64,000 nt of DNA. It comes from Parcubacteria group bacterium Greene0714_7 (lineage in GTDB: Bacteria > Patescibacteriota > Minisyncoccia > Phycocordibacterales > Phycocordibacteraceae). Of this stretch, positions 6,787-52,395 are shown piece by piece. Numbering within the stretch: the first letter of the stretch is position 1; the number at the start of each line of letters is the position of its first letter. Under the pieces are notes generated by a model, which saw only the letters and a program-made list of their open reading frames with translations, did no database searches and was not told the DNA's origin. The translations under genes were made by a program, and so were the position numbers. Where the stretch lies: positions 192,252-256,251 of the forward strand of contig VMHB01000001.1 in NCBI GenBank assembly GCA_007378985.1, given 5' to 3'.

Positions 6787-6793
6787 TATAAAC

Positions 6794-8392: not shown

Positions 8393-8500
8393 ATGATGAG
8401 CGGATTTAAACTTAAATCAGAATATAGTCCTGCAGGGGACCCCAGTACCAGACGCTCTTGCGTCGGTACGGGGCAGGTCATCCTTCATATAAAAACATGA
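8393..8500 (+). other. 35-codon upstream ORF that repeats the UvrB N-terminus and contains hairpin module A. Its TGA overlaps the uvrB ATG (ATGA).
   Basis: The uORF begins MMSGFKLKSEYSPAGD. The real UvrB begins MSGFNLKSDYKPAGD. Most codons differ only at synonymous positions. Confidence 0.45.
8438..8477 (+). repeat. GC-rich hairpin module A of the GACCCCAGT...ACGGGGCAGG family
   Basis: GACCCCAGTACCAGACGCTCTTGCGTCGGTACGGGGCAGG. The outer stem is CCCC(A)GTACC/GGTACGGGG and the inner stem is GACGC-TCTT-GCGTC. Confidence 0.6.
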
Positions 8501-10581
8501 GTGGTTTTAATCTCAAATCTGACTACAAACCAGCTGGCGATCAACCGCGAGCCATCGAGGCGTTGGTTAAGGGTGTGAAAGACGGGGAGTCACATCAGAC
8601 ACTTCTTGGGGTTACCGGCTCGGGTAAAACATTCACTGTTGCAAATGTTATACAGCAGATTCAAAAGCCAACCTTAGTCATTGCACACAATAAAACACTC
8701 GCAGCGCAACTTACACAAGAGTATCGAGAATTTTTCCCTGAAAATGCGGTGCACTATTTTGTTTCTTACTACGACTACTATCAGCCAGAGGCATACATGC
8801 CGATGACTGATACCTACATTGAAAAAGAGGCTCAAATTAACGCTGAAATTGATCGTTTGCGCCATGCTTCTACTCAGGCACTTTTAACTCGGAGTGATGT
8901 CATTATTGTGGCATCCGTTTCCGCTATCTACGGTCTTGGTTCTCCTGAGCAATATAAAAGAGTCCATAGGAATATTAGGGTGGGTGAAAAATTCGAGCGT
9001 GCAGAATTTGTACGTGCTCTCATTGGGCTCCAGTTTGAGCGTACAAACGCCGACTTAACTCCGGGGACATTTAGAGCGGTAGGTGCGAACGTTGAGCTTA
9101 TGCCAGTCAATGAAGTAGCGGTGTACCGTATTCATCCAGAGCAAGGAAGAATCGCACACATTAGTAAGCTCAATGCTGTTTCCCGGGCTCTTGTTGACGA
9201 GCCAAAAGAATTTTTTCTTTTTCCTGCAAAACATTATGTTACCGATGAAGCTGATAGAGGAAGGGCGGTAGCAGATATACAAAAAGAACTTGATGTTCGT
9301 TTGGTCCAGCTTGAAGCTGAAGGAAAAATGCTGGAGGCAGAACGCCTGCGGAGGCGTACTCGCTACGACCTCGCCCTCATTCGTGAAATTGGATACTGCA
9401 ACGGCATTGAAAATTATTCTCGCCACTTTGATGGACGCAAAGCTGGAGAGCCTCCGTATACGCTTCTTTCGTATTTTCCACACAAAGCAGATGGAACGCC
9501 AGATTTCCTTACGGTCATTGATGAGTCACACGTCACTATTCCTCAGCTCCGTGCCATGTATGCAGGAGACCAGTCACGAAAAAAGATGCTGGTTGATTAC
9601 GGGTTTCGTTTGCCATCTGCTGCGGACAATCGCCCTTTAACATTTGCGGAATTTGAGAAAAGAGTTGGAGAAAAAGTGTATACCAGTGCAACGCCAGGAG
9701 TGTATGAGTTTGAGCATTCGGGTACACCAATCGAGCAAGTCATTCGACCTACGGGACTCATTGACCCTGAAATAATAATTCGCCCCGTAACGGGCACCAG
9801 TTCATCGAGTAGTCAGGTAGTTGATTTCATACAGGAGACCGTCTCGGTAGTAAAAGGAGGAGGGCGAGTGCTTGTCACTACACTGACGAAGAAGATGGCG
9901 GAAGACTTGTCGGAATTCTTAAAAGAAAAAAATATAAAAGCTGAGTATATTCATAGTGATATTAAAACGATTGACCGCATTACTATTCTCACTGAATTTC
10001 GCAAAGGGACCTTTGATTGCTTGGTTGGTGTGAACCTACTTCGTGAAGGGCTCGACCTACCTGAAGTTGAGCTTGTGGGAATACTTGATGCCGATAAGGA
10101 GGGATTTCTTCGCTCCGATACATCACTCATTCAGACTATTGGTCGCGCAGCTCGAAATGTTAATGGTCGGGTTATTCTCTATGCCGATGGAATGACTGGC
10201 TCTATGGAGCGTGCCATTGGAGAGACTAATCGTAGGCGTGCGGTACAGCTTGCCTACAATACAAAGCACGGCATCACACCAAAAACCATTCATAAGAACA
10301 TTAAAGACATTACGGAAACACTGCAATCAGAGAGAGCTGCGGCTATTACTATGCTTTTGGCAGTTGATGAGGATCGTACGCATGATCCTAAAGCCTTGAA
10401 GGCTCTTATTAGCGAGAAACGCCAGCAAATGGAAGATGCGGTTGAGGTTCTTGATTTTGAGACTGCCGCACTGCTGCGAGATGAGGTCTATAAACTTGAA
10501 GAAAAACTACCCGTGCCGAAAAAGCCTAAGCGTAAACCCAAATGGCCCAAGAAAGGTATGGTAATTGATTTAGAAGATTAG
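8497..10581 (+). CDS. uvrB: Excinuclease ABC subunit B
   Basis: UvrB helicase motifs (GVTGSGKTF, DESH) and a C-terminal UvrB/UvrC interaction helix. The start is taken at the MSGFNLKSDY Met, not the TTG of the ORF track. Confidence 0.9.
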   Translation: MSGFNLKSDYKPAGDQPRAIEALVKGVKDGESHQTLLGVTGSGKTFTVANVIQQIQKPTLVIAHNKTLAAQLTQEYREFFPENAVHYFVSYYDYYQPEAYMPMTDTYIEKEAQINAEIDRLRHASTQALLTRSDVIIVASVSAIYGLGSPEQYKRVHRNIRVGEKFERAEFVRALIGLQFERTNADLTPGTFRAVGANVELMPVNEVAVYRIHPEQGRIAHISKLNAVSRALVDEPKEFFLFPAKHYVTDEADRGRAVADIQKELDVRLVQLEAEGKMLEAERLRRRTRYDLALIREIGYCNGIENYSRHFDGRKAGEPPYTLLSYFPHKADGTPDFLTVIDESHVTIPQLRAMYAGDQSRKKMLVDYGFRLPSAADNRPLTFAEFEKRVGEKVYTSATPGVYEFEHSGTPIEQVIRPTGLIDPEIIIRPVTGTSSSSSQVVDFIQETVSVVKGGGRVLVTTLTKKMAEDLSEFLKEKNIKAEYIHSDIKTIDRITILTEFRKGTFDCLVGVNLLREGLDLPEVELVGILDADKEGFLRSDTSLIQTIGRAARNVNGRVILYADGMTGSMERAIGETNRRRAVQLAYNTKHGITPKTIHKNIKDITETLQSERAAAITMLLAVDEDRTHDPKALKALISEKRQQMEDAVEVLDFETAALLRDEVYKLEEKLPVPKKPKRKPKWPKKGMVIDLED

Positions 10582-21767: not shown

Positions 21768-21813
21768 ACCCCGTTAGAAATACCACCTGCACAGATTTCT
21801 AAAATATTTATAT

Positions 21814-23652
21814 ATGAAAAAGCGCATTGATAAAATTTCTAACGGGGTGAACATACTTGAATTAACACGGAGTGGAAGAGCAAGAGTTCTCGTCATAGGG
21901 AATCATTCAGGCATTATTCAGTCAATGCTCGATTTTGATTTTCTTTCAGGCAAGGAAATTCCTTCTGTATTGGGGATAGTTGCAGGGAATCGTAAGGCAG
22001 AAAAATATTTTTTTGGGACTAAAGAAATTTTGTTGCCATGCTATAAGAATATTCAAATTGCTTCGGAGGCCTTAGGTTCAAAGGTCGACTGGATGCTTAA
22101 TCTTCAGTCGGGACGGCGTACATTTGAATCAACGGTTTCCTTTTTTGATTTTTTCCCAAAATCGCTTGGGGCACACATATTTGCAGAAAATGTTCCAGAA
22201 AGTCACGCAACTGAGCTCATTTCTCGTTTTGGTAAGAAGTATTTTATCGTAGGGCCTTCAGGAGTTGGATTGTTGATACCAGGCGCTTTGAAGCTTGGCG
22301 CCATTGGTGGTGTTGATGCGGTTCAAATTAAATCTGGAGCACTGACAAACGCTGGAAATATTGCGGTTGGTTCAACTTCTGGAGGAATGACTAATGAGCT
22401 GATTCATGCAGTTGCGCGTGCTGGGAAAAGACTCTCGTTTGCAATAGCTATTGGCGGAGACAGGTTTCCTGTAGTTTCTTTGACGCAGATATTTGCGCTT
22501 GCTGAAGCAGATTCTCAAACAGAAGGATTTGTATATTTTGGAGAGCTTGGCGGTGTAGATGAATATGAAATTATTGAGCTCATTAAGGCAAAAAAGTTCA
22601 CCAAACCTCTTGTTGCGTATATTGCGGGAATTATAGATGAAGCATTTGATGAACATGTACAATTTGGGCATGCAAAGGCATTGGTGCAGACAATGGATGA
22701 AAGTGCTCGTGCAAAGCGTGAGGCACTTCGCGAGGCTGGTGTTATTGCTCCTGATACATTTCCTCAGTTTCTTGATGCGCTTCAAAAACTTCCCGGAGGC
22801 GCGTATACTGCTGAGGAAATGGATATAGAGCCGCTTCAAGGACGACAGAAAAGTATTCTTTCGACGAGAAAGGTTTCAGACATAGATGAAGGTCGTATTT
22901 TTGTAAAAGGAAAAAAACTTTCGAAAGGCAAAGAAAATGCATTTGTGGACGCTACGTTAGTTGCACTTCTTGGAAAGCCTGTACAGTCTCCAATAACACG
23001 AGCCTTTACCGAAGCTGTGTTTGAAATGCTTATAGACCACGGAGGAAATGTTTCAGGGGCAGTAAATACCATGATTACCGCTCGTGCTGGTAAAGATCTT
23101 GTTTCATCCCTTGCCTCAGGCCTTCTCACTGTTGGTCCCCGTTTTGGTGGAGCAATAAACGAAGCAGCTCGTTTGTGGATTTCGGGTGTTGTATCGCAAA
23201 AAACAGGTTTGGAATTTGTAGCTGAAAAAGCAAAGGCAGGTGAGTTGATTTTAGGCATTGGGCACAAGAAATACCGCGTTGGGCTCCCAGATCCTCGAGT
23301 GAAAGCTCTTGCTGAATTTGCAACGCTTCTTAAAGTACATCCACATTATGATTTCGCACGGAGCGTAGAGAAAGCAACAACTTCAAAAAACGGGAAATTG
23401 ATTTTAAATATCGACGGCGCTATTGCAGCGTTACTCTTAGACATCTTGAGTGAATGCGAAGGGATGAGTCAGCGCGAACTTCAAGAGCTTGCTGATGCTG
23501 AATTCTTTAATGCATTTTTTGTTATTCCTCGCTCTGTAGGTTTCATTGCACATTTCATGGAACAAAAGAAAAATGATGAAGGTTTGTTTCGTCTTCCTGA
23601 TGAACTACTGTTTGTGAGAGCAGAGACTCCAAAGAAAACTAAGAAGAAATAA
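21814..23652 (+). CDS. aclA: ATP-citrate lyase alpha subunit (CoA-binding SucD-like domain plus citrate-synthase-like domain)
   Basis: MLDFDFLSGKEIPSV, ARAGKDLVSSLASGLLTVGPRFGG, GIGHKKYRVGLPDPR (a citrate synthase-type motif) and PRSVGFIAHFMEQ all match the ACLY C-terminal half. Confidence 0.8.
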   Translation: MKKRIDKISNGVNILELTRSGRARVLVIGNHSGIIQSMLDFDFLSGKEIPSVLGIVAGNRKAEKYFFGTKEILLPCYKNIQIASEALGSKVDWMLNLQSGRRTFESTVSFFDFFPKSLGAHIFAENVPESHATELISRFGKKYFIVGPSGVGLLIPGALKLGAIGGVDAVQIKSGALTNAGNIAVGSTSGGMTNELIHAVARAGKRLSFAIAIGGDRFPVVSLTQIFALAEADSQTEGFVYFGELGGVDEYEIIELIKAKKFTKPLVAYIAGIIDEAFDEHVQFGHAKALVQTMDESARAKREALREAGVIAPDTFPQFLDALQKLPGGAYTAEEMDIEPLQGRQKSILSTRKVSDIDEGRIFVKGKKLSKGKENAFVDATLVALLGKPVQSPITRAFTEAVFEMLIDHGGNVSGAVNTMITARAGKDLVSSLASGLLTVGPRFGGAINEAARLWISGVVSQKTGLEFVAEKAKAGELILGIGHKKYRVGLPDPRVKALAEFATLLKVHPHYDFARSVEKATTSKNGKLILNIDGAIAALLLDILSECEGMSQRELQELADAEFFNAFFVIPRSVGFIAHFMEQKKNDEGLFRLPDELLFVRAETPKKTKKK

Positions 23653-24257: not shown

Positions 24258-24323
24258 TTTCGACTCCATGACTCACTCAGAGCAAGCACCCGTGGACTAT
24301 TTTTCTAAACACTACAAAAGAGC

Positions 24324-24365
24324 CAGTATAGTATAAGTTAACGACCGTTAAATTATACTATACTG
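24324..24365. promoter_or_regulatory. 42-bp AT-rich near-palindrome P1 (20-bp arms, AC centre)
   Basis: CAGTATAGTATAAGTTAACG-AC-CGTTAAATTATACTATACTG. Confidence 0.5.
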
Positions 24366-24409
24366 ATTGAAACTGCTTTTATTTTAGAATTAATTTTTTA
24401 CTCAATTTT

Positions 24410-24721: not shown

Positions 24722-24797
24722 AGATGCCGTTTATTATATCATTTTGATTTTTTAACTCTTCAGTAATGTAATTTTTAAGTATTATTAACCAATTGCC

Positions 24798-24837
24798 TGT
24801 ATAGTATAATTTAACGACCGTTAAATTATACTATACA
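24798..24837. promoter_or_regulatory. 40-bp near-palindrome P2, same family as P1, in the divergent spacer between the 103-aa gene and the NUDIX gene
   Basis: TGTATAGTATAATTTAACG-AC-CGTTAAATTATACTATACA. Confidence 0.5.
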
Positions 24838-24876
24838 CCTTAATACTACTTAGCTTAGGCGGTATATAATAAAAAA

Positions 24877-25484: not shown

Positions 25485-25988
25485 TCACCACACCCATTTT
25501 ACTGATACAAAAGCAATTGCGAGAACACTAAGAAGTGTGATTCCTTGTAGTGCCATTAATATATATTTATGTGAACGTGCGACATGTGATTTTCTTTTAA
25601 GATATGCACGCCAACCTTGATGAATTAAAATTATATTCCCAGTTAGTGCAAAAATAAGTATTAATGCAGAGGTGTTGGTGGTGAACGCTAATGCGTCAAA
25701 CCCGTAGAGAGCTACACTCGCCCCCACTCCAACAAATAGTATGTCCAGTAGTGCATTTTCTGCATCCTCTACGAGGCCAGCCCCAAACTCAAGAGCTTCG
25801 TAGAGTACTGCTCCACCAGTGATTGCTATAAAAGCGTAGAGAGTGGACACCTCTAGAAACCACGCGAATGCTCCGAATGTTAATCCAGAAAATAGGTGCA
25901 CGAGCGACCAGAAATCAGCATAGCGACCATGCGCCCACCCGAAGTTTACGAGTTTTGAAGCTGTGCGTTCAAAGTTTAATTTCAGCAT
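25485..25988 (-). CDS. Hypothetical integral membrane protein
   Basis: Four or five predicted transmembrane helices. An SD-like GGGAGAAG precedes the chosen ATG. Confidence 0.5.
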   Translation of the reverse strand: MLKLNFERTASKLVNFGWAHGRYADFWSLVHLFSGLTFGAFAWFLEVSTLYAFIAITGGAVLYEALEFGAGLVEDAENALLDILFVGVGASVALYGFDALAFTTNTSALILIFALTGNIILIHQGWRAYLKRKSHVARSHKYILMALQGITLLSVLAIAFVSVKWVW

Positions 25989-26061
25989 CTTCTCCCTAGT
26001 ATACCTTTCCATCTTAAAATATCGTGGTATTCTTTGCGCGTATTCTAAAGAAGAAATACCT

Positions 26062-26580
26062 ATGGACGAAAAACAATTGAACGGGGAGATACGCACTGAA
26101 AAGACTCCACGCACGGTGTATTTTTTTGAGTACCTGACGCGTTGGACGGGTTCCATCCCATCATTGATTGTTCACACAATTCTTTTCGGTGGTGCTTTTG
26201 CTCTTGGGTTCTTTCATGTAGCTCCGTGGGATTCTGTGCTTTTGGTATTGACGACATTAGTTTCTTTAGAAGCAATCTATCTTTCTTTGCTCATACAAAT
26301 GACTGTCAATAGACACTCAGAAAGCTTGAAGGAGGTTGGAGAAGACGTTGAGGGGATTCAGGAAGACATTGAAGAAATTACCGAAGACGTTGAGGGAATT
26401 CAGGAAGACATTGAAGAAATTACCGAAGACGTTGAGGGAATTCAGGAGGATGTTGAAGAAATGACCGAAGAAGATGCTGAAGACGCAGAATTAGAAAAGC
26501 GTCATCTCGTGAGCCTAGAGCAGTTAACAAAAGATGTACAACGGGTTTTACAGGACTTGGAGAAATTCAAGAAACAGTGA
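26062..26580 (+). CDS. DUF1003-like membrane protein with an acidic C-terminal tandem repeat
   Basis: Two transmembrane helices (FGGAFALGFFHVAPW...) are followed by three copies of a 14-aa repeat VEGIQEDIEEITED. Confidence 0.55.
   Translation: MDEKQLNGEIRTEKTPRTVYFFEYLTRWTGSIPSLIVHTILFGGAFALGFFHVAPWDSVLLVLTTLVSLEAIYLSLLIQMTVNRHSESLKEVGEDVEGIQEDIEEITEDVEGIQEDIEEITEDVEGIQEDVEEMTEEDAEDAELEKRHLVSLEQLTKDVQRVLQDLEKFKKQ
26347..26472 (+). repeat. Three tandem copies of a 42-bp in-frame repeat inside the DUF1003-like gene
   Basis: GTTGAGGGAATTCAGGAAGACATTGAAGAAATTACCGAAGAC x3, with a few substitutions in copies 1 and 3. Confidence 0.8.
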
Positions 26581-28714: not shown

Positions 28715-30274
28715 ATGGACATCAGCATCATTGAACGCCTCAAGAAAGAAATTGAATCCTTTGCACCAAATGCAAAACCAACTGAAACGGGCATCGTGCG
28801 CAAGGTGGGTGATGGCATTGTTGAGATAGAAGGTTTGGATGAAGTGTCGATGGCCGAGATGGTTCGTTTTGACGAGGGTTCGGTATCTGATGTGAAAGCA
28901 ACTATTGCACATGAGGATACACTCTATGGTGTTGTATTGAACTTGGAAGAGAATACCGTAAAGGCAATCATCCTCGGGGATTCGTCACGCATTAAAGAGG
29001 GAATGCTTGTGCATCGCACAAAGAAACTTCTTTCAATTCCTGTAGGAGACGCGGTTATTGGTCGCATTGTTGATGCACTCGGAGTTCCTATAGATGGGAA
29101 AGGGCCAATCAAAGCAGATGCCACAAGTCCTATTGAGCGCGAAGCGTACGGCGTTATCGATAGAGGCCCAGTAAATGTACCAATGCACACCGGCATTAAA
29201 GCAATTGATTCATTAATTCCTATTGGTCGTGGACAGCGTGAACTCATCATTGGCGACAGAGGCACTGGTAAAACAACAGTTGCTATCGATGCAATTTTGA
29301 ACCAACTTAATGAACCAAAGGAGACACGCCCTATTTGTGTATATGTTGCTATTGGTCAAAAAGAATCAAAGACTGCCCGCATTGCAGCGATGCTTAAAGA
29401 GCGCGGTGCGATGGATTACACCATTGTGGTATCGGCTCCAGCATCAGCTTCAGCAGCATTCCAATTCTTGGCACCGTACGCTGGCGTAACTTTGGGTGAG
29501 TATTTCATGGACAAAGGCAGAGATGTTTTGGTTATCTACGATGATCTTTCCAAGCAAGCTGTTGCGTACCGACAACTTTCGCTCCTCCTTCGTCGTCCCC
29601 CTGGACGCGAGGCATATCCTGGAGACATTTTCTATCTCCACTCAAGACTTTTGGAACGAGCCGCAAAACTTTCTCCTGAAAAAGGAGGAGGCTCTCTTAC
29701 GGCGCTTCCTATTATTGAAACGCAAGAAGGCGACATCTCGGCGTACATTCCAACCAATGTTATTTCCATTACTGACGGTCAAATGTTCCTCGAGGCTGAT
29801 CTCTTCAATAAAGGAACACGCCCTGCAATCAATGTAGGTATTTCAGTTTCTCGTGTCGGTTCTGCCGCTCAAACAAAAGCTATGAAGAAGGTGTCGGGAC
29901 GCATCAAGCTCGACCTCGCACAGTTCCGTGAACTTGAAGCATTCATGCAATTCTCACAAGATCTCGATGCTGAAACGAAGAAGACCATTGATGGAGGTCG
30001 TCGTCTTTCGGCAATTCTGAACCAAAACAAAAACGCCCCAATTCCATTTGAGCGACAGGTTGTTGTTATGTATGCAGTCACTAACGGCTTCTTCGATACA
30101 TTTGGTGCTGAACAGATGAGTGAAATAGAAGCAAAGTTCCTCGCGTATTTGGATAGGGAAGCTAAAGGCGTTCTTGACGCTATTCGTACATCAAAAGAAA
30201 TAGCTAAAGACACGGAGGAGAAACTTAAGACTGCCATTCAGTCGTTTGTTTCAACTGTAGATGTGAAAAGCTAA
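28715..30274 (+). CDS. atpA: F-type ATP synthase subunit alpha
   Basis: Walker A GDRGTGKT and the alpha-specific C-terminal domain. Confidence 0.95.
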   Translation: MDISIIERLKKEIESFAPNAKPTETGIVRKVGDGIVEIEGLDEVSMAEMVRFDEGSVSDVKATIAHEDTLYGVVLNLEENTVKAIILGDSSRIKEGMLVHRTKKLLSIPVGDAVIGRIVDALGVPIDGKGPIKADATSPIEREAYGVIDRGPVNVPMHTGIKAIDSLIPIGRGQRELIIGDRGTGKTTVAIDAILNQLNEPKETRPICVYVAIGQKESKTARIAAMLKERGAMDYTIVVSAPASASAAFQFLAPYAGVTLGEYFMDKGRDVLVIYDDLSKQAVAYRQLSLLLRRPPGREAYPGDIFYLHSRLLERAAKLSPEKGGGSLTALPIIETQEGDISAYIPTNVISITDGQMFLEADLFNKGTRPAINVGISVSRVGSAAQTKAMKKVSGRIKLDLAQFRELEAFMQFSQDLDAETKKTIDGGRRLSAILNQNKNAPIPFERQVVVMYAVTNGFFDTFGAEQMSEIEAKFLAYLDREAKGVLDAIRTSKEIAKDTEEKLKTAIQSFVSTVDVKS

Positions 30275-30308
30275 AACCTGATACCTGAAAGTTGACACCT
30301 AAAACCCC

Positions 30309-30413
30309 ATGTCTCTCAAAGATATCAAACTCAAAATAAAATCTGTTGACCCCAGTCGTAGAGCTGGAACAGCTCACAACGGGGCAGGCCGTACTCACAT
30401 ACTATGTCGTTAA
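30309..30413 (+). other. 34-codon upstream ORF that repeats the AtpG N-terminus and contains hairpin module C. Its TAA overlaps codons 3-4 of atpG.
   Basis: The uORF begins MSLKDIKLKIKSVD, identical to AtpG residues 1-14, yet 8 of 14 codons differ at synonymous positions. Confidence 0.45.
30348..30388 (+). repeat. GC-rich hairpin module C of the GACCCCAGT...ACGGGGCAGG family
   Basis: GACCCCAGTCGTAGAGCTGGAACAGCTCACAACGGGGCAGG. The inner stem is GAGCTG-GAA-CAGCTC. Confidence 0.6.
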
Positions 30414-31321
30414 AGGATATTAAATTGAAAATAAAGTCCGTGGACAGAACACGGAAAGTTACGAAGGCAATGGAATCTGTTTCTGCGGTGAAGATGCGCA
30501 AAAGTCAGATACGCGCAATTACCTCGAGGCCCTACGCTTCTTCCGCGCTCTCCATTCTGGAGCGCATGAGTGTTTCTCTCGCGTCTCTTAAACATCCGTT
30601 AACTGTTGTGCGACCTGTCAAAAAAGCAGCAATAGTTGTGGTTACCAGCGACAAGGGACTCTGCGGCATATTAAATGCAGCTGTTGTGAAATCTGCCTAC
30701 ACTCTTGCAGAATCATTGGAACTCCCTCGTGAAGCAATTTCTATCTACGCTTTTGGACGCAAAGGGGCTGAGTTTTTTGATCGCCGTGGATATCAAATTT
30801 TAGGAAAGTTTGAAAACGTTTCTGACGATGTTTCTGTTGCTGACCTAGCTCTTGTCTCAAATGATATCGCCCGTGCATTTCTAAATAAAGAATTTGACCG
30901 TGTTGATGTTGTATATACCAACTTTAAATCTACGTTTGAGCAAAGTGCTATTGCCCATAAAGTACTTCCACTCTCCATTGAAACAGTATCTGAAATAGTG
31001 AGCGGTATTGTGCCAGTAAAAGGAAAGTTTGCTGTGGTAGAGCGAGTGAAAGGTCCTGCATCATACACGGCAGAGCCATCTACTGAAGTTGTCGTAGACG
31101 CCCTCATTCCACGCCTTGTCAGTGTACTTTTCTTCCACGCACTTTTGGAGTCAAAAGCGTCAGAGCATTCAGCTCGTATGGTTGCCATGAAGAATGCGTC
31201 AGATAAATCTCGAGATCTTTCTAAGCTACTGACAAGAAAATACAACAAAGCTCGTCAGGCGCTTATTACCAGAGAAGTTTCCGAGATTGTTGGAGGTATC
31301 GAGGCCATGGCAACGAGTTAG
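30404..31321 (+). CDS. atpG: F-type ATP synthase subunit gamma
   Basis: Gamma subunit N- and C-terminal coiled-coil helices (MSLKDIKLKIKSV...ITREVSEIVGG). Confidence 0.9.
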   Translation: MSLKDIKLKIKSVDRTRKVTKAMESVSAVKMRKSQIRAITSRPYASSALSILERMSVSLASLKHPLTVVRPVKKAAIVVVTSDKGLCGILNAAVVKSAYTLAESLELPREAISIYAFGRKGAEFFDRRGYQILGKFENVSDDVSVADLALVSNDIARAFLNKEFDRVDVVYTNFKSTFEQSAIAHKVLPLSIETVSEIVSGIVPVKGKFAVVERVKGPASYTAEPSTEVVVDALIPRLVSVLFFHALLESKASEHSARMVAMKNASDKSRDLSKLLTRKYNKARQALITREVSEIVGGIEAMATS

Positions 31322-31354
31322 AAAGAATAGAAGAATTAAGGTAAAATCAAAAAC

Positions 31355-31528
31355 ATGACACTTCTAGCTGAAAGAGTACATAGAAAAAATTCTGACAAAG
31401 GATTGAAAACAGTGGTGGAAACTGACGGAGTTCGAAAAAGTTCGTGGCGTCTTACTGAGGCTGAGCAGGCTATCTTAAGGGTATTAAATGGCGAGGCAAC
31501 TGTAGGGCCTGTTTGGGATATAAAATAA
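31355..31528 (+). CDS. Small ORF (57 aa) in the atpG-atpD spacer, below the ORF-track threshold
   Basis: ATG...TAA is open. MTLLAERVHRKNSDKGLKTVVETDGVRKSSWRLTEAEQAILRVLNGEATVGPVWDIK. Confidence 0.3.
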   Translation: MTLLAERVHRKNSDKGLKTVVETDGVRKSSWRLTEAEQAILRVLNGEATVGPVWDIK

Positions 31529-31532
31529 AAAT

Positions 31533-31724
31533 ATGGCATCACCAGAAAGAAAGGGAAGATTAGACATTAGTGAGGTTCCATTTCGTGGGCGCCTTGCTTC
31601 CGCTGGTGGTTTTGATGGGAGAGGTCGAGGTGGCGGAGGTAGACTTGAGGATGAGAAATTTAGACCTCGCCTCCTTCAAGGAGGATTAAGTTCATCTTCA
31701 GATCCGGAAAATCAAAAAGAATAA
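31533..31724 (+). CDS. Small Arg/Gly-rich ORF (63 aa) in the atpG-atpD spacer
   Basis: RGG-like tract FDGRGRGGGGRLEDEKFRPR. It is on the same strand as the operon. Confidence 0.3.
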   Translation: MASPERKGRLDISEVPFRGRLASAGGFDGRGRGGGGRLEDEKFRPRLLQGGLSSSSDPENQKE

Positions 31725-31770
31725 AAGAAATTAATATATTAAAAGTTGCAACCTATAACCTGACACCTAA

Positions 31771-33156
<1,386 letters not shown>

Positions 33157-33316
33157 CTTCCTATGGCTTTACTCAATCAGGCAGAAAGTTTGCGGGCTCC
33201 TCAAAAGCACACGGGGGGTGGTAACTGGCTAGAGGCATATCTAAATATGTTGTTTAAGGTGTCAGGACCGATGATGGATTTTCTCTTACTAACTACTCCA
33301 AAAAAGAATTAGGCTT

Positions 33317-33547
33317 ATGTTGGTTGTTATTGCAAAAGTTCATGAGAATCTTTTTTCAGGGGAAGCACTCTCGCTTTCTGCTATGACCACAGAAGGGAAG
33401 CTCACTATACTCCCCAAGCACGAGCCCTTTGTGGCGAATTTGAAGGCGGGAGAGGTGACAGTAAAGACAACATCAGGAGAGCAAAAATTTGATATTACTG
33501 GTGGTGTTCTTGAAGTTTCCAACAATCAGGTAACGGTGCTTTTGTAA
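33317..33547 (+). CDS. atpC: F-type ATP synthase subunit epsilon (N-terminal beta-sandwich only, 76 aa)
   Basis: Epsilon N-domain pattern, last gene of the operon. Confidence 0.75.
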   Translation: MLVVIAKVHENLFSGEALSLSAMTTEGKLTILPKHEPFVANLKAGEVTVKTTSGEQKFDITGGVLEVSNNQVTVLL

Positions 33548-33548
33548 T

Positions 33549-33740
33549 ATGGCTAAGCGTGCAACTGCTGTAGAGGCAAATTTGGCGGATTTTTGGAGTG
33601 TAGTTAGCCATCCTCTCAATTTCGAAAATCCAGCTACACGAGACACTGTTCGAAAAATTGCTTTCAGTGCCATGAAGAAATGTAATAGAGAAGATGCTCT
33701 AAAAATACAAGCTTTTTTGGATGAGTATAACTGTGGTTGA
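33549..33740 (+). CDS. Small hypothetical ORF translationally coupled to atpC
   Basis: Its ATG lies 2 nt after the atpC stop. 63 aa, no recognisable domain. Confidence 0.3.
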   Translation: MAKRATAVEANLADFWSVVSHPLNFENPATRDTVRKIAFSAMKKCNREDALKIQAFLDEYNCG

Positions 33741-33981: not shown

Positions 33982-34078
33982 AATTATTTTTTTGAAACAC
34001 TAACCTTCGTTATTAAGAAGGATTCCAGAATTGTTTGTAGTGCGAGGGGAGTCCTCATGCTACATAAGTGTAAGTTTT

Positions 34079-37000
34079 TTAGAGAGGGGAAGAAGGGTTC
34101 CAGAATTGTTTCCCCGGGTTTCGGTAGACGAGGATTGGTGTGAGTACGAGTGTCAGAATCATTGCAAATGAGAGACCAAACATAATAGCGAAGGCAAGAG
34201 GTCCCCATAGTGCAGATGCGCCAGCGAGAGGAATCATACCAATGACGGTAGTGATGGTAGTGAGAACAATTGGTCGAAGCCTGCTTGCTGAACCGTCAAC
34301 AACTACCTCCTCCAGTGTCTTTCCTTCGGGATTCTTCATGCGGATTATGATTGAGTCCACAAGAATTATGGCGTGGTTGATTATGACACCAGCAAGTGCA
34401 ATGACACCTAAGAGAGATGAGAACGAGAGCGGTTGTCCCGTAAGTGCAAGGCCACCTAATACTCCAATGAGAGAAAGAATGACGAGCATGAGGAGATAGA
34501 ACGAATAGCGGAATGAATTGAATTCGAGTACTAGAACTGCAAGCATAAGCACCAAACCAGCGAGGAAGGCAATTCCCATTTCGCTGAATGACTTATTTAC
34601 ATCTTCCGTTTCGCCTCCGATTTTCATTACGACACCAGTAGGCAAAGTTTCTTTTTCAATAGCTTTTTTGAATGCGGTAGATACCTCAACAGCTGTTGCT
34701 CCTCCTGCAGTGTAGCTAGAGACAGTAGCAATGTTTTTTTGGTCTTGGCGCCTAATAACTGCGTTTGATTTTTCAATAGAAGGGGAGAGAATTGAGCCTA
34801 ACAGTACTGTGCCTCGAGGCGTTTTTACAGAGAGGTTTAAGAGCGTATTGATATCTGCTTTTGTAGTATCTTCCGGTTCTTGCCAAGAAGGGTTGAGGTT
34901 TGTGGAGACAAGAACGTCGATGTCCTCGGTGTCATTTTTTATAGTGGTTGCAACAACACCTGAGACTGCAGTTCGGAGAATGCTTGCTACCTGTAGAGGA
35001 GAGAGCCCCACTTGTGATGCCTTGGCGCGGTCAATAGTGAGGGCAAACTGTGTTCCATCGTCCTTAATAGATGTAGCTACTTCAGCAGTACCTTTAATGG
35101 AGCGCATTATTTTTTCGCCTGTAGCTACTGAGCGCTCTAAGTCATCAAGATTGTCTCCAGAGAAGGTTATAAGAACTGGGGCGCCTGAAGGTGGTCCGCC
35201 AGCTGGCTCGAATGCATTTACAGAAAATTCATGGAAAACAGAAACTTTGTTTCTGAGCTCTTCAGTAATTTGTGTTGAAGTTTGTTTTCGATCTTCTTTC
35301 GGTACAAGCTTGATGGTGATGTTTGCGTATTTGGCACCGCTGGATTGATTTTGACTTAATCCTGATGAGGCACCAACAGTTGTTACAAATGAGCTGATAC
35401 GCGAATCGTTATAAAGAAGCTCTTCTACACCTCGGGTGGCAAGATCAGTCACTTCAAGTGGTGTGCCTTGCTTTGCTTCTACTTCAAGATATACATAATC
35501 GGCATCCTCTGATGGGAAAAAGAGCACTTTCACAATGCCTGACACTGGTAAGAGAATTGCTACGACGAGAGCGAGACCCAATCCAAGCATGAATCTATTT
35601 TGGAATTTTCTATTTTTCAAAACTCCCGTAAGAAAGCTTCGGTACCATACTTGCGCTTTGTTGTTCCACTCTTCTTGTATGATTTGAAGTTTGCCAGTGC
35701 TTCGCTTGGTGAGATTTATTGCAATTAATGGCACTAAACCGAGTGCTACAAAAATCGAAGCAATAAGAACGGTAATGATTGTAAAGGGGATTGATTGAAT
35801 GTATTGACCTACAATACCTGAAATAAAGAAGAGTGGCGCAAACATAACGACAGTCGTCATAGTGCCTGCGGTTAGGGGCCTGGCATATTCGCGAATCGCT
35901 TCTTTTGCTGCACGAATTGGATCCCCAAATTTCTGATAGCGCGTGTGAATTGCTTCCGTCACCACGATGCCAGAATCAACAAGAATGCCGATTGCAAGAA
36001 TGAGTGCAAAGAGGGAGACGAAATTTATGGTGTTACCTGAAGCGTTCAGTCCTATGAATGCAATAACGAAAGAAAGAGGAATTGAAAGTCCTGCAACGAG
36101 AGATTCTCGCCAGCCAATTGTTAACACAAGACAGATCATGACGAGAGCGATTGTTTCTAAGCCAACTTTAGTAAGTTCGCTCAAACTTTTCTGAACTTCT
36201 TCTCCAAGGTCAATCGAGATATCGGTAGTAATACCCAAAAGCATTGTTCCCGAGAGCGAGTTTAGTTTTTCTTTTGCTGCTGATGCTGTTTTGAAAATAT
36301 TTCCTCCAGCTTTTTTATATACTGAAAGGGTAATTGCAGGCTCTGCTGGAGCGCCTTTAGTAGAAACGCGAGATACACTTTTTGCTTTCTCAAGACCGTT
36401 AACGATGTCCGCTACATCGCGAAGATAAATTGGGTTGCCATCTAAATTCCCGATACTTGTTTGCGCGAGTTCTTCTGGATCATTCAAATCGCCCTTAAAG
36501 GCAACAGAATACTCAATGGCATCGACAGTTATAGTGCCAACAGGTAAAGAACTATTGGACGCACTTAGGGCAGATACTACGTCCGTAAGTGATAGTCCGT
36601 ATGATTGTAAAGCTTCTTTGCGAACTATTATGTTCGCTTCTCGTTCGCGGGTACCGCTGATTTCCACTCTGGACACACCAGATACTTGTTCAAGTTCATC
36701 CTGCACATCTTTGGCAAGACGAGTAAATTCTGTTGGTGGAAGTCCGCCAGAAAGAGACACTATAAAAATTGGTTGATCGTTCGCTGTGATGCGGAGTACT
36801 ACAGGTTCGTCTGCATCTTTAGGAAGTTTTGGTTTTGCACGGTCAACCGCATCTTTAACATCCTGAATTGATTTATCAATATTTGCCGATGCTTCAAATT
36901 CAGCACTCACTACAGAGACTCCCTCGCGAGAAGAGGAAGTGAGTTTGTGAAGGTTCTCAACAGTGCCAACCTCTTTCTCTATTTCCTTTGTTATGAGTTT

Positions 37001-37183
37001 TTCAGTGTCTGCCGCGGAGGCACCACGAAGCGTTGTTTGAATAATGGCAATAGGAATTGTTACCTCTGGGGCATTCTCTTTTGGTATTGCTAAAACGGCT
37101 ACAAATCCCGCCACCACAAGAGCGATTATCACTAGAATAGTGAACTGCCTGCGTTCAATGAAAAAGTTCCAAAATTTATGCAT
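34079..37183 (-). CDS. RND family efflux transporter (AcrB/HAE1-like), 1034 aa
   Basis: Twelve transmembrane helices plus large periplasmic loops, typical of AcrB/CzcA. Confidence 0.9.
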   Translation of the reverse strand: MHKFWNFFIERRQFTILVIIALVVAGFVAVLAIPKENAPEVTIPIAIIQTTLRGASAADTEKLITKEIEKEVGTVENLHKLTSSSREGVSVVSAEFEASANIDKSIQDVKDAVDRAKPKLPKDADEPVVLRITANDQPIFIVSLSGGLPPTEFTRLAKDVQDELEQVSGVSRVEISGTREREANIIVRKEALQSYGLSLTDVVSALSASNSSLPVGTITVDAIEYSVAFKGDLNDPEELAQTSIGNLDGNPIYLRDVADIVNGLEKAKSVSRVSTKGAPAEPAITLSVYKKAGGNIFKTASAAKEKLNSLSGTMLLGITTDISIDLGEEVQKSLSELTKVGLETIALVMICLVLTIGWRESLVAGLSIPLSFVIAFIGLNASGNTINFVSLFALILAIGILVDSGIVVTEAIHTRYQKFGDPIRAAKEAIREYARPLTAGTMTTVVMFAPLFFISGIVGQYIQSIPFTIITVLIASIFVALGLVPLIAINLTKRSTGKLQIIQEEWNNKAQVWYRSFLTGVLKNRKFQNRFMLGLGLALVVAILLPVSGIVKVLFFPSEDADYVYLEVEAKQGTPLEVTDLATRGVEELLYNDSRISSFVTTVGASSGLSQNQSSGAKYANITIKLVPKEDRKQTSTQITEELRNKVSVFHEFSVNAFEPAGGPPSGAPVLITFSGDNLDDLERSVATGEKIMRSIKGTAEVATSIKDDGTQFALTIDRAKASQVGLSPLQVASILRTAVSGVVATTIKNDTEDIDVLVSTNLNPSWQEPEDTTKADINTLLNLSVKTPRGTVLLGSILSPSIEKSNAVIRRQDQKNIATVSSYTAGGATAVEVSTAFKKAIEKETLPTGVVMKIGGETEDVNKSFSEMGIAFLAGLVLMLAVLVLEFNSFRYSFYLLMLVILSLIGVLGGLALTGQPLSFSSLLGVIALAGVIINHAIILVDSIIIRMKNPEGKTLEEVVVDGSASRLRPIVLTTITTVIGMIPLAGASALWGPLAFAIMFGLSFAMILTLVLTPILVYRNPGKQFWNPSSPL

Positions 37184-40011: not shown

Positions 40012-40185
40012 GAATTGCTGATTGAAGTCGAGTGTTTCATACACTAACTAGCCAATTTTTTATTTAGGAGATATTAGAAAAAAGAAAAATGGAAACAGTG
40101 GGTTGATATAGTTCAACAAATAGGAAGTAGGGCAAAATAAATTAGGACCCTCTAATAATTAATGCCCCGTGTCTCCGAAAAACAC

Positions 40186-40227
40186 CTGTATAGTATAAAA
40201 TCACGGTCGTGATTTTATACTATACAG
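40186..40227. promoter_or_regulatory. 42-bp near-palindrome P3 (same family as P1/P2, with compensatory arm changes) upstream of ychF
   Basis: CTGTATAGTATAAAATCACG-GT-CGTGATTTTATACTATACAG. Confidence 0.5.
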
Positions 40228-40287
40228 GGTTTTAAATTTTTTTTTTAGGCTAGCCACTAAAGCCTAAACCCTATACACTGCTCCTTT

Positions 40288-42653: not shown

Positions 42654-42755
42654 ATGGGAAGTTACGACCGCCCCAGTACCACCGGGCTCCGCATGGCTAC
42701 GGGGCAGGAAGTGGTTCGATATATAATCGTGTTTTTGACATTTTCAGTACCCTAA
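42654..42755 (+). other. 33-codon upstream ORF with a LeuRS-like start (MGSYD versus MQSYD) that contains hairpin module B and ends 6 nt before the leuS ATG
   Basis: ATG GGA AGT TAC GAC then CGCCCCAGT... The TAA lies at 42753. Confidence 0.4.
42666..42708 (+). repeat. GC-rich hairpin module B of the GACCCCAGT...ACGGGGCAGG family
   Basis: GACCGCCCCAGTACCACCGGGCTCCGCATGGCTACGGGGCAGG. Confidence 0.55.
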
Positions 42756-42761: not shown

Positions 42762-45173
42762 ATGCAATCATACGACCACAAAAAAATAGAGAAAAAATGG
42801 CGAAAGCTTTGGGAAGAGTCAGGTATTTACAAGACTAGTGAAAATTCATCAAAGCCAAAGCACTATGTTCTGGACATGTTTCCGTACCCATCGGCGTTAG
42901 GTCTTCACACTGGTCATGTTGAAGGGTATGCGGCGACCGATATTTACAGTCGTTTTAAACGAATGAAGGGGTTCAGTGTGCTCCATCCTATGGGATGGGA
43001 TGCGTTCGGTCTCCCTGCAGAAAACTATGCAATAAAAACAAATACGCCACCTCGAGAAACTACAAATAAGGCAATTGATAACTTCCGCAATCAAATCCAA
43101 CGCTTAGGCCTTTCGTATGACTGGTCACGAGAAATAGGCACTCACAATCCTGACTATTATAAGTGGACACAGTGGTTGTTTTTGTTCTTGTTTGAAAATG
43201 GTCTTGCGGAAAAACGCATGGGTAAGGTGAATTGGTGTCCCACCGACCAAACAGTGCTCGCCAATGAACAAACAGTGAGTGAGAGTGGAGAAAAGGGTGT
43301 GTGTGTTCGTTGCGGTACAAAAATAATTCAACGCGAACTTTCACAGTGGTTTTTCAAAATTACTGATTTTGCTGATGTATTAATTGATGATTTGAATGGT
43401 GTTGATTGGCCAGAGTCTACAAAAATAAATCAACGAAATTGGATTGGTAGAAAAGAAGGAGTCATTGTTACTCATAAAGTGAAAGGGCTGGATGTATCGC
43501 TCGACACGTTTAGTGCCTATCCTGCATGGCTTTTTGCGGATACCTATATGGTACTTGCTCCTGAGCACCCAATAGTAAAAACTCTTGTGGAAGGTACTGA
43601 AGTACAAAAGAGTGTTGAGGATTTTGTGAAGTGTATGCAGGAGGTCACAACGATTGATCGCACAAACGCAACAACGGAGAAAGAGGGTATTTTTACAGGA
43701 CGCTTCGCTATTGACTCTCTCTCCGGTAAAGAATTTCCTATTTGGATTGCTAACTTTGCTTTGATGGATTTTGGAACAGGTATTATTCGTTGCTCTTCAC
43801 ACGATATCCGCGACCTTACATTTGCTAAAAAATACGGAATCCCTTTGAGTGAGGTAGTCGAGAGAGAAAGTCCTGATATGCCCGTTGATGCCCATGCTAA
43901 TAAGGGTGTTTTGAAAGACTCGGGTCCGTTCACTGGTCGCACTATTAATAATGAGTTAATTCAAGAAATAATTGCGTGGATAGAAAGTAATGGATATGGG
44001 CATGCACAGACTACATACCGTCTTCGTGATTGGCTTATTTCTCGTCAACGATATTGGGGGGCGCCTATTCCAGTAGTGTATGACCCAGAAGGGAAAGCGC
44101 ATGGAGTTCCCAAAGAGCACTTGCCGTGGCTCCTTCCTGAAGATGTAGAGTATTTACCGAAGGGAACTTCACCGCTCGGAACCTCAAAGGAACTTTTGGA
44201 ACGAACAGAGAAAATATTTGGGAAAGGGTGGAAGCCAGAGATCGACACTATGGACACTTTCGTGTGTTCTTCGTGGTATTTTCTTCGATTTGCCGATCCA
44301 CATAATGAGATTGAGTTTGCGTCGAAAGAAGTAGTAAAAAAATGGCTTCCCGTTGACCTCTACATGGGAGGTGCTGAACATACAGTTTTGCATCTTATGT
44401 ACGCCCGCTTTATTACCAAGGCCCTGCAGAAGTTTGGATACATAGAGTTTGGTGAGCCATTCTCCAAGCTCCGTCACCAAGGGATGATTCTTGCTGAAGA
44501 TGGAACCAAGATGTCTAAGTCGAAAGGTAATGTCATAAACCCTGACGAAATTAGTGAACTCTACGGTGCGGACACGCTACGAATTTATGAAATGTTCATG
44601 GGTCCTCTTGAAGCTATGAAGCCATGGAGCACCAAAAATATTATTGGCTCACGGAGATTTTTGGAGCGTGTCTGGAGGGTACAAGAAAAGGTGAGTCAAG
44701 GTGCAACTTTGAGTGCAAGCGCTGATGCCACTCTACAGCAAACAATTAAAAAAGTAGCTGAAGATATCGAGCTCCTTAGTTTAAACACGGCAGTGAGTCA
44801 GATGATGATTTGTGTTAATGCTTTTGAAAAAGAAGAAAAAATACCTGCTGAAAGCTATGAGAGCATGCTGTTGGTACTTGCCCCGTTTGCACCTCATATG
44901 ACAGAAGAATTATGGGAAACTTTGGGTCATACTTCTTCAATTCATCAAGAAAATTGGCCAGTGTTTGATGAAAGTAAGCTCGAAAAAAATGAAGTAGTAA
45001 TGGCTGTTCAGGTTGGTGGGAAAGTAAAGGGCACCATTGTCATTCCTCGCGGAGCTACAGAAGAAGAAGTAATTGAGTTAGTACGAAAAGACGTCAAACT
45101 TGGTGGGGTAGTTCCTCAAAACCCATCCCGCATGATATTCGTTCCCAATAGGGTCGTTAACTTCATACCCTAG
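42762..45173 (+). CDS. leuS: Leucyl-tRNA synthetase
   Basis: HIGH-region equivalent (HTGHVEGY), KMSKS, and the CP1 editing and anticodon-binding domains. Confidence 0.95.
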   Translation: MQSYDHKKIEKKWRKLWEESGIYKTSENSSKPKHYVLDMFPYPSALGLHTGHVEGYAATDIYSRFKRMKGFSVLHPMGWDAFGLPAENYAIKTNTPPRETTNKAIDNFRNQIQRLGLSYDWSREIGTHNPDYYKWTQWLFLFLFENGLAEKRMGKVNWCPTDQTVLANEQTVSESGEKGVCVRCGTKIIQRELSQWFFKITDFADVLIDDLNGVDWPESTKINQRNWIGRKEGVIVTHKVKGLDVSLDTFSAYPAWLFADTYMVLAPEHPIVKTLVEGTEVQKSVEDFVKCMQEVTTIDRTNATTEKEGIFTGRFAIDSLSGKEFPIWIANFALMDFGTGIIRCSSHDIRDLTFAKKYGIPLSEVVERESPDMPVDAHANKGVLKDSGPFTGRTINNELIQEIIAWIESNGYGHAQTTYRLRDWLISRQRYWGAPIPVVYDPEGKAHGVPKEHLPWLLPEDVEYLPKGTSPLGTSKELLERTEKIFGKGWKPEIDTMDTFVCSSWYFLRFADPHNEIEFASKEVVKKWLPVDLYMGGAEHTVLHLMYARFITKALQKFGYIEFGEPFSKLRHQGMILAEDGTKMSKSKGNVINPDEISELYGADTLRIYEMFMGPLEAMKPWSTKNIIGSRRFLERVWRVQEKVSQGATLSASADATLQQTIKKVAEDIELLSLNTAVSQMMICVNAFEKEEKIPAESYESMLLVLAPFAPHMTEELWETLGHTSSIHQENWPVFDESKLEKNEVVMAVQVGGKVKGTIVIPRGATEEEVIELVRKDVKLGGVVPQNPSRMIFVPNRVVNFIP

Positions 45174-52307: not shown

Positions 52308-52351
52308 TTTTTTAAATTAACGACTAGTGTCTACAAATTTCTTTTTTGCAT

Positions 52352-52395
52352 GACTGAGAAACTTATTTCCATATATGGAAATAAGTTTCTCAGTC
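52352..52395. promoter_or_regulatory. 44-bp perfect palindrome over the 3' end of the second TrpR-like gene. It is followed on the plus strand by a T-run, so it probably also terminates the Cas4-like gene.
   Basis: GACTGAGAAACTTATTTCCATATATGGAAATAAGTTTCTCAGTC followed by TAATTTTTTCTTTTTT. Confidence 0.6.

Follow-up and report, generated by a model that had tools for sequence, protein, structure and literature searches.

In the 64,000-nt stretch of the Parcubacteria group bacterium Greene0714_7 genome analysed here (the window, to whose positions all coordinates refer; L- and P-numbers designate the compared loci and proteins), the gene atpG, encoding the gamma subunit of the F1 part of ATP synthase, is preceded by a second copy of its own beginning. 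This arrangement, referred to as site C, is probably the result of a strain-polymorphic module of 104 nt lodged in the fifteenth atpG codon, which combines a hairpin of a recurrent family, a leader and a replacement gene start derived from a diverged allele, and which presumably moves between lineages as one piece. Comparison of sequences demonstrates the polarity of this insertion and its boundaries, the foreign nature of the second copy, the polymorphism among strains and the affiliation of site C with a family of hairpin modules having three members in the window. The observation made in an earlier note on this DNA is thereby confirmed and proves to be stronger than first described; the three-member family had been missed in that note, and its existence changes the interpretation.

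The upstream copy of the atpG start (30309-30350) reads ATG TCT CTC AAA GAT ATC AAA CTC AAA ATA AAA TCT GTT GAC, and the downstream one (30404-30445) reads ATG TCG TTA AAG GAT ATT AAA TTG AAA ATA AAG TCC GTG GAC. Both 42-nt copies, located 95 nt apart, encode MSLKDIKLKIKSVD, and all ten differences between them are synonymous, exactly as had been described. The earlier note also considered a chance origin of this pattern improbable, and with 25 of the 126 single changes possible in 42 nt being synonymous, the probability of observing 10 synonymous changes out of 10 is indeed about 1e-7, none of 300,000 simulations having reproduced it. Repeat scans of the whole window returned chance peptide repeats of 6 residues at most, and comparison of the N-termini of 55 genes with their upstream regions gave values of 72 for atpG and 66 for uvrB over a background not exceeding 30; a fortuitous or low-complexity repeat at site C is thus ruled out by the simulation together with the window-wide scans. 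The 53-nt spacer between the two copies folds as a hairpin with an energy of -17 to -19 kcal/mol.

Which of the two copies is native was deduced from relatives devoid of the insertion. The exact AtpG protein was found on three contigs, two of which (L001 and L002) have the arrangement of the window, while the third one, L003, originating from a different ENA sample, is insertion-free. L003 represents a near-identical strain differing by one leader base (30287, the nearest upstream difference) and by five single-nucleotide polymorphisms (SNPs) in atpG, located outside the module region; for codons 18-305 a total of 6 differences was counted. In this contig the leader is directly followed by ATG TCT CTC...GTT GAC CGT ACT CGT AAA GTT with no hairpin, so that the net gain of the window is 95 nt, and the flanks are identical over 63 nt upstream and 155 nt downstream of the module. 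A single atpG start is also characteristic of seven close strains (L090-L096) and of 80 species representatives, none of which contains the hairpin core, and the gap between atpA and atpG in single-copy relatives spans from a few to a few tens of bases. The AtpG relatives are Patescibacteria of the Paceibacteria/Kaiserbacteria type, and UvrB and LeuRS of the window show 100% identity with proteins from the metagenome-assembled genome of Greene0714_7. Since the single-copy relatives possess the upstream type of start, it is the window that carries an insertion, in which positions 30351-30454 stand in place of nine native bases and comprise the hairpin, a 15-nt leader and a new ATG opening a stretch of 17 re-coded codons. 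Relative to the sister allele in L003 the re-coding extends three codons beyond the duplicated fourteen, CGT ACT CGT being changed to AGA ACA CGG, and all 14 changes over 51 nt are synonymous (chance of about 7e-10). Codons 15-17 are CGT ACY CGY in nearly all close relatives, and the AGA ACA CGG of the window is therefore derived. Thus, the proposal that the upstream copy is ancestral and that the hairpin with the second start was added is borne out by L003 and other relatives, where the leader is directly joined to the upstream-type codons. Tandem duplication in situ followed by drift was ruled out, given that L003 differs from the window by less than 1% elsewhere and by 27% in the second copy, and so was the interpretation of single-copy alleles as deletions of the two-copy one, CGT ACT CGT being the ancestral state.

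The leader preceding the upstream ATG had also been taken for a motif typical of gene starts in this genome, and this claim did not hold: exact CACCTAAAACCCC occurs once in the window, and with up to three mismatches it is found 20 times versus 13.7 expected, which is not an enrichment. A loosely similar C/A-rich motif is confined to atpD and a few other intergenic regions. A loose C/A-rich repeat of the CCTAAAC type was observed on either strand in a few intergenic regions (2860, 4400, 26634, 37205 and 40250).

The structure of site C is present in the ENA contig, in one Logan assembly, in two metagenome-assembled genomes from NCBI and in two more Logan assemblies obtained from other runs, and an identical module was found in GCA_018062445.1, GCA_020049755.1, SRR11088468 and SRR11088367 (L086-L089). 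In the L086 lineage the rest of atpG differs from that of the window at 59 of 864 positions (6.8%), the remnant of the native start differs by one synonymous base, and the module itself lies in a tract of about 520 nt with only about 1% divergence between the two. Independent insertion in two lineages, as a proof of site-specific mobility, was set aside because with a tract so little diverged shared ancestry or recombination suffices to explain the identity of the modules. The earlier note had named as adverse to its interpretation the case in which relatives carry one copy without the hairpin and this genome is the only carrier: one-copy, hairpin-free relatives do exist, but the genome is not the only carrier.

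The second copy is not identical to any sampled atpG allele, and it resembles natural atpG sequence. Its first 21 nt coincide with the alleles of L091 and L093, and its codons 12-18 (TCC GTG GAC AGA ACA CGG A) with the natural allele of the distant insertion-free relative L006; the codons used, for example CGG, AGA and TCC, are rarer than those of the native copy. A second small hairpin is formed around the Asp codon of the new copy, and it was rejected as a putative element end, since the atpG one is also found in L006 and is thus a property of the donor allele. The synonymous-only pattern was interpreted in the earlier note as selection acting on the prefix of the upstream open reading frame (uORF) that begins at the first ATG. 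This interpretation has to be abandoned: the upstream copy is the native start and the downstream one a foreign functional start, the pattern arises because both descend from working gene starts of diverged lineages, and purifying selection is seen in both because each acted as a real N-terminus. As judged from the alignments, the pattern is no evidence of selection on the uORF peptide. Differences between close strains cluster in patches 50-170 nt in length (13-21%, mostly in third positions; 29789-29836, 29908-29962 and 30478-30646 in comparison with L003 and L086) with long identical stretches between them; in atpA the window and L003 are separated by 10 SNPs in 48 nt, and in atpG the window and L086 by 25 SNPs in 170 nt. 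Such patchiness indicates that recombination of short tracts with diverged relatives is frequent, and since the population is strongly mosaic, acquisition of short tracts from diverged relatives is routine here.

Sliding-window folding of the whole stretch revealed that the hairpin of site C is joined by two others with the same ends. The corresponding pattern CCCCAGTN{15,45}ACGGGGCAGG, that is CCCCAGT-N(15-45)-ACGGGGCAGG, has three matches in the window with none expected, at 8440, 30350 and 42671 (hereafter sites A, C and B, respectively), and relaxed scans of the window added no further hairpins. All three sequences fold with a closing stem CCCC/GGGG, bulged A, GT/AC and 3' CAGG; their interiors, self-complementary and too variable for MAFFT alignment, differ between the sites together with everything located 3' of the hairpin. 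At site A the stub ATG ATG AGC GGA TTT AAA CTT AAA TCA GAA TAT AGT CCT GCA GGG GAC is followed by the hairpin, a 19-nt tail and the real start of uvrB, ATG AGT GGT TTT AAT CTC AAA TCT GAC TAC AAA CCA GCT GGC GAT CAA CCG CGA. In L097, the UvrB of which is 97% identical, only the stub version exists, being continuous with the gene and free of any insertion; the second version is foreign until three codons (9 nt) past Asp and then becomes identical to L097, and the N-terminal peptides are MSGFNLKSDYK for the new start versus MMSGFKLKSEYS. Site B starts with ATG GGA AGT TAC GAC C, continues with the hairpin and a 53-nt tail, and ends with the real leuS start ATG CAA TCA TAC GAC CAC; leuS relatives begin with MGSYDHKK, and the remnant equals the single start of the insertion-free L137 as well as that of P0242, P0243 and P0246. 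L097 and L137 being insertion-free, the upstream stubs at uvrB and leuS are also native starts. The residues differing between stub and new copy are K/N, E/D and S/K at uvrB and G/Q at leuS.

The three sites have much in common. Each hairpin is situated just after an in-frame Asp codon (native target GAY|C(R)) within the first 5-16 codons, the three genes uvrB, atpG and leuS being essential, and the left junction shifts by only 0-3 nt from site to site. For atpG, uvrB and leuS, respectively, the module measures 104, 110 and about 114 nt, the native ATG is separated from the new one by 95, 104 and 108 nt, and the uORF consists of 34, 35 and 32 codons. Strong N-terminal duplications among the 55 genes were detected for atpG and uvrB only, and each of the hairpins is accompanied by a duplication. 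Features of the three sites and other elements mentioned below are collected in Table 1.

Table 1. Positions of genes, module components and palindromes in the window
Feature	Positions	Strand	Basis or remark
atpA (F1 alpha subunit), gene upstream of site C	28715..30274	+	ORF (open reading frame), Pfam families
Native atpA-atpG intergenic leader, 3' end CACCTAAAACCCC	30275..30308	+	runs uninterrupted into the single atpG start in insertion-free L003 and L094
Native atpG start remnant, codons 1-14, last codon Asp GAC	30309..30350	+	42/42 bases identical to the L003 atpG start
Site C uORF, 34 codons: native start and hairpin in frame	30309..30413	+	TAA at 30411-30413 within atpG codons 3-4
Inserted module, 104 nt, in place of 9 native nt (CGTACTCGT)	30351..30454	+	alignment with L003
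Site C hairpin, conserved base CCCC-A-GT ... AC-GGGG-CAGG, inner stem-loop GAGCTG GAA CAGCTC	30350..30388	+	pattern and folds
Module tail, new 15-nt leader CCGTACTCACATACT	30389..30403	+	no significant similarity to the native leader
New ATG and re-coded atpG codons 1-17, foreign allele	30404..30454	+	14 synonymous, 0 non-synonymous changes versus L003
Functional atpG (F1 gamma subunit, 305 aa)	30404..31321	+	PF00231; full-length N-terminus as in 80 relatives
Site A uORF: native uvrB start remnant (MMSGFKLKSEYSPAGD) and hairpin	8393..8500	+	TGA overlaps the new ATG as ATGA
Site A hairpin, same conserved base	8440..8477	+	-24 kcal/mol, z = -3.8
uvrB with replacement start	8497..10581	+	codons 1-18 (8497-8550) foreign, then identical to L097
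Site B uORF: native leuS start remnant (MGSYD) and hairpin	42654..42752	+	TAA 9 nt before the new ATG
Site B hairpin, same conserved base	42671..42708	+	pattern and fold
leuS with replacement start (MQSYDHKK...)	42762..45173	+	53-nt tail with TATAAT in front
AT-rich palindromes	6319-6363 / 6791-6813, 52351-52395 / 52826-52920, 24322-24378 / 24795-24851, 40184-40240, 20995-21039		

The insertion severed the native start from atpG, leaving it to open a uORF of 34 codons that runs through the hairpin, and the gamma subunit would now be made from the new ATG either by reinitiation after the uORF or by direct initiation on an unstructured start region. The N-terminus of the M-S/A-LKDIK... type is conserved in all gamma subunits examined, and translation would therefore have to begin at 30404. 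The overlap of the uORF stop with the early atpG codons, noticed from the beginning, was confirmed, and the stops at uvrB and leuS are likewise at or next to the new ATG: relative to it the uORF stop is at +7 in atpG, forms the ATGA overlap in uvrB, and is placed 9 nt before it (-12) in leuS. This geometry fits termination-reinitiation without proving it, and expression from the second atpG ATG by this route is plausible from the arrangement of the codons. On the other hand, the values predicted for accessibility and local folding energy at the new ATGs are within the range of native starts and similar to those of other genes of the window, so that direct initiation would also be possible, the new starts being predicted to be about as unstructured as the native ones. 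The context of the second atpG ATG is G-poor and lacks a Shine-Dalgarno sequence, as is the case for most genes here. Gene starts in the window generally have no Shine-Dalgarno sequence, and many of them are preceded, at a distance of 3-10 nt from the ATG, by a TATAAT-like box, a hint that the corresponding mRNAs are leaderless or nearly so. No promoter was predicted inside the module of site C, in line with the location of this site within the atp operon. In the depositors' annotation (P0009 and P0010) atpG starts at an internal GTG, codon 13, giving a protein of 293 rather than 305 aa, that is 12 codons short, presumably because the uORF overlaps the true start.

The position of the uORF stops on or close by the new ATG in each of the three genes and the persistence of the module in two strain backgrounds could be understood if the uORF with its hairpin were a selected regulatory device tuning the synthesis of gamma, of which one is required per three alpha/beta, by attenuation or obligatory reinitiation, with the peptide prefix of the uORF being under selection. 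We consider this improbable: modules of the same type reside in uvrB and leuS, where no stoichiometry has to be adjusted, the closest strain and 86 further relatives do without the module, the uORF prefix is the native start itself with one substitution between the two carrier lineages and no measurable selection, and the sites show no conservation of the peptide that spans the hairpin. Even less credit can be given to programmed bypass or splicing, in which the native start would still make gamma because ribosomes or an RNA-level process skip from the stub's Asp codon onto its counterpart in the second copy. The codons flanking the gap do look suggestive, since the take-off-like GAC is immediately followed by the hairpin, which begins at this codon, and by the rare CCC codon, and a matching GAY codon is found 92-105 nt downstream at all three sites (GAC...GAC in atpG and leuS, GAC...GAT in uvrB). 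The matching codons are, however, a trivial outcome of the duplication, there is no stop codon after the take-off codon, and no match to known ribozyme or intron models was obtained. The stretch to be skipped holds, moreover, a complete N-terminus conserved at the protein level (14 synonymous and no non-synonymous changes) with its own ATG, and the jump is both unnecessary and disfavoured because this region is under protein-level constraint and would itself be translated. Least probable of all is an artefact in which the assembler joined two strain variants of the atpG start in tandem. Both variants do resemble alleles found in the population, but the same junctions with the same 53-nt spacer recur in at least six assemblies differing in runs, assemblers and studies and representing two strain backgrounds, the spacer is unrelated to either allele of the atpG start, and the same architecture exists at two further genes. 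Because independent assemblies and strains carry the module, the assembly artefact, which had been named from the outset as a possible objection, is excluded.

As for the origin of the modules, a mobile hairpin element and a by-product of recombination between diverged relatives are the two candidates. In the first and more probable case the hairpin, leader and gene start would travel between diverged lineages as one piece of DNA, the right end being joined by homology and the left one at GA(C)|C, either without homology or through microhomology, and the hairpin itself may be a small non-autonomous element, a recombination hot-spot or a recognition site for a trans-acting enzyme. Survival would be restricted to insertions supplying a functional N-terminus of strongly diverged sequence: without a new start the gene would be killed, and direct repeats that are nearly identical and separated by 100 nt would be lost by recombination, so that strong divergence of the surviving copies is expected under either model. 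Both models are compatible with a right boundary lying sharply 9-14 nt beyond the junction, with the small displacements of the left junction and with the similarity of the new starts to natural alleles. That a single hairpin base, target codon, frame and length recur speaks for a specific agent, and the gene-specific cargo together with the failure to find an enzyme favours a by-product. In the latter variant, which we regard as rather unlikely in its pure form, a break in the 5' part of the gene would be repaired off a diverged homologue through synthesis-dependent strand annealing or homology-facilitated illegitimate recombination; synthesis would proceed leftward through the donor start and leader, stop at an intergenic hairpin and end with a microhomology join at GA(C)C/CCCC and loss of a 9-nt flap. 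Such a route is consistent with a foreign patch that at sites A and C begins abruptly 9-14 nt beyond the left junction, with the variation of the left junction by 0-3 nt at C/CC microhomology, with the resemblance of the second copy to natural alleles of distant relatives, with the abundance of short, highly diverged patches in this population and with the position of the hairpin exactly at the left end of the copied DNA at 3/3 sites. It requires, however, donors having this hairpin 15-53 nt upstream of three unrelated genes, and there is no such hairpin in 0.55 Mb of the relatives' DNA or in L097, L098 and L137; besides, unless a specific agent is involved, three independent accidents would hardly be expected to share the hairpin base, the frame and the Asp-codon target and to agree approximately in length (104-114 nt).

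A tentative and more far-reaching possibility is that the modules constitute an undescribed class of selfish or semi-selfish insertions in the first codons of essential genes, which carry a re-coded start instead of being spliced, with the hairpin recognised by a trans-acting enzyme, related hairpins spread in phages and the re-coding preventing both recombining out and re-cutting. Several circumstances weigh against the reading preferred here, in which the module is a transferable unit. A donor combining the hairpin with this atpG start was not found in 80 GTDB species loci, JGI metagenomes or viral contigs; the three hairpins share their base alone and are thus not recent copies of one element; a self-mobile element alone cannot explain the gene-specific cargo; and neither transposase nor integrase nor reverse transcriptase was present among the 28 distinct window proteins scanned, which make up about half of the window genes. 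Sites A and B are known from one strain only, the right boundary of the module is defined to some 5 nt at site C and cannot be assigned at site B, and use of the second ATG as well as its coupling to the uORF are predicted from sequence. The strings that would mark a donor are ATGTCGTTAAAGGATATTAAATTGAAAATAAAGTCCGTGGACAGAACACGG and the module tails; the hairpin 20-mer gave two chance matches with unrelated flanks in JGI metagenomes and none in viral contigs, and strings combining tail and start were also absent from viral contigs. No source of the spacer was found in the window, the fetched loci or viral contigs. Its assignment to the 3' end of a foreign gene (frame TPVVELEQLTTGQAVLTYYVVKGY*) was rejected, no homologue being detected in any fetched locus, and the same applies to a derivation of the module tails from the native upstream region by divergence, for which similarity was not significant, and to the hairpin interior as a guide to the target gene (not significant, best p of 0.015 in six tests).

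Hairpins with the signature of the modules were also encountered in viral contigs, where 38 loci match the bare pattern, no more than expected by chance. Several IMG/VR hairpins have stems that are perfect beyond the fixed bases and covary (three copies in L118, two each in L112 and L125, and also L104, L122, L123 and L133). Their base is CCCC[A/G]GT...ACGGGGCAGG, short direct repeats flank several copies, and no such phage hairpins were obtained with controls in which the bulged base or the 3' tail of the pattern had been changed. In a Mu-like phage two hairpin copies are positioned in frame inside ORFs, in linker regions; IMGVR_UViG_3300033489_000049 is an example of the Mu-like contigs. The phage hairpins may be related to the bacterial modules.

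Some other peculiarities of the window were noticed. In the AcrB-like gene 34079-37183 (minus strand) a C-terminal stretch of 21-24 nt encoding KQFWNPS is repeated 75 nt downstream with one mismatch and is then followed by TAA TAA (34016-34111), which looks like a 3'-end counterpart, that is a displaced native gene end, without the CCCCAGT hairpin. The spaces between atpG, atpD and atpC (31322-31782 and 33157-33740) contain small ORFs of 57, 63, 49 and 63 aa without Pfam matches, which vary among the close strains L086, L091, L093, L094 and L003: there are none in L086, and the others have 69+63, 59 or 57+60 aa. The ORF of atpC has just 76 aa, and in L003 an extra 42 nt (CTAGGGGCTAGCGTTTAGCGGGTAGGGTTTAGGGTG...) directly follow atpG. 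Near-perfect AT-rich palindromes with 19-bp stems (…ATCATATATGAT…, …TTCCATATATGGAA…; Table 1) bracket small genes at a distance of about 465-473 nt, two of the bracketed genes encoding TrpR/YerC-family proteins (142 and 146 aa). Within the ORF 25963-26580, which has no Pfam match, a 21-nt unit encoding EDVEGIQEDIEEIT repeats recurs six to seven times in tandem at 26320-26476, with a super-period of 42 nt, and two adjacent genes at 20622-23652 have domains of the ATP-citrate-lyase/citryl-CoA type (Citrate_bind, Citrate_synt and Ligase_CoA), unusual for so reduced a genome.

The modules look like an apparently undescribed way for small insertions to sit in essential genes without killing them, and no paper dealing with the motif or the phenomenon was found in the literature. 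If they are a coherent family, they would represent a third way of accommodating foreign DNA in essential genes, beside introns with their RNA splicing and inteins with their protein splicing, and would have a bearing on how recombination between diverged lineages shapes tiny genomes and on initiation and reinitiation without Shine-Dalgarno sequences. Even as a by-product of recombination they form a clear and recurrent signature, previously uncatalogued. For gene calling in genomes of the candidate phyla radiation the module is a practical annotation hazard, as exemplified by the shortened atpG calls. Coexistence of strains with and without the insertion offers a natural experiment, in which the cost of a uORF before a core ATP-synthase gene becomes measurable.

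Several known systems share particular traits with the modules. At the level of translation, coupling of termination and reinitiation at overlapping stop and start codons (ATGA-type) is used in bacterial operons, and in both cases only a few bases separate the stop from the real start; unlike operon coupling, the uORF of the module is the amputated native start of the same gene, and the new starts are predicted to be accessible alone. The bypass in T4 gene 60 and the mitochondrial byp elements also have a GC-rich hairpin in the coding sequence directly after a codon that recurs downstream. Unlike them, the module gap is twice as long, lacks a stop after the take-off codon and, instead of being non-coding and devoid of its own start, holds a replacement N-terminus that would be translated; the matching codons and the hairpin at take-off are trivially accounted for by the duplication. 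A diversity-generating retroelement was rejected, the ten differences between the atpG copies involving T, C, A and G in both directions rather than being confined to adenines of a template. With Rfam 15 (introns, ribozymes, riboswitches and leaders) neither the window nor 12 phage loci gave a match at gathering score, and when the Rfam searches were relaxed, all hits obtained for the three sites belonged to unrelated families, with 1.9 as the best E-value.

At the level of DNA, homology-facilitated illegitimate recombination, or microhomology-mediated templated insertion, accompanies natural transformation in Acinetobacter and Streptococcus pneumoniae. Its products share with the modules a foreign patch joined by homology on one side and by a microhomology of a few bases on the other, as well as partial duplication of the target, and this pattern of junctions fits sites A and C. 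Unlike random illegitimate joins, the modules recur at three genes with the same hairpin, target codon and length; recurrence of one hairpin is not expected from such events, and no donor was found. Small palindromic repeats such as REP/BIME, Correia, RUP, the IS200/IS605-derived PATEs and Rickettsia palindromic elements are short, non-coding, multi-copy and hairpin-forming, those of Rickettsia occurring within coding sequences and being read in frame, and elements of the IS200/IS605 type insert 3' of a short target without target duplication. The modules are likewise short multi-copy hairpins and are also read in frame in genes. Unlike these repeats, which have shared subterminal hairpins and a common interior, their copies are conserved only at the hairpin base (CCCCAGT/ACGGGGCAGG), the interiors being wholly different, and each copy is coupled to a gene-specific, duplicated and re-coded start. 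The native targets agree with GAY|C(R) in 3/3 cases, as a fixed target would, yet nine native bases are replaced and the left junction shifts by 0-3 nt; the scan of 28 distinct window proteins revealed no Y1 HUH transposase (TnpA or RAYT).

Some integrative elements restore the end of the gene they enter by means of a diverged copy, examples being phage 21 and e14 in icd of E. coli and islands in the 3' ends of tRNA genes. Like the modules, they leave a displaced pseudo-end, and the replacement encodes the same residues with many synonymous differences and keeps the gene functional. The modules differ in having neither integrase nor cargo, the whole insert being about 105 nt and the 53 nt between the two copies of site C containing no ORF of note; in acting at the 5' end, where a start codon and a leader must also be supplied; and in lacking an identical core, since beyond GAC the two copies of site C have no identical stretch at the junction and the conserved part is the hairpin. 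The modules thus resemble both the gene-end-rebuilding integrative elements and the small palindromic repeats, and possess the defining features of neither.

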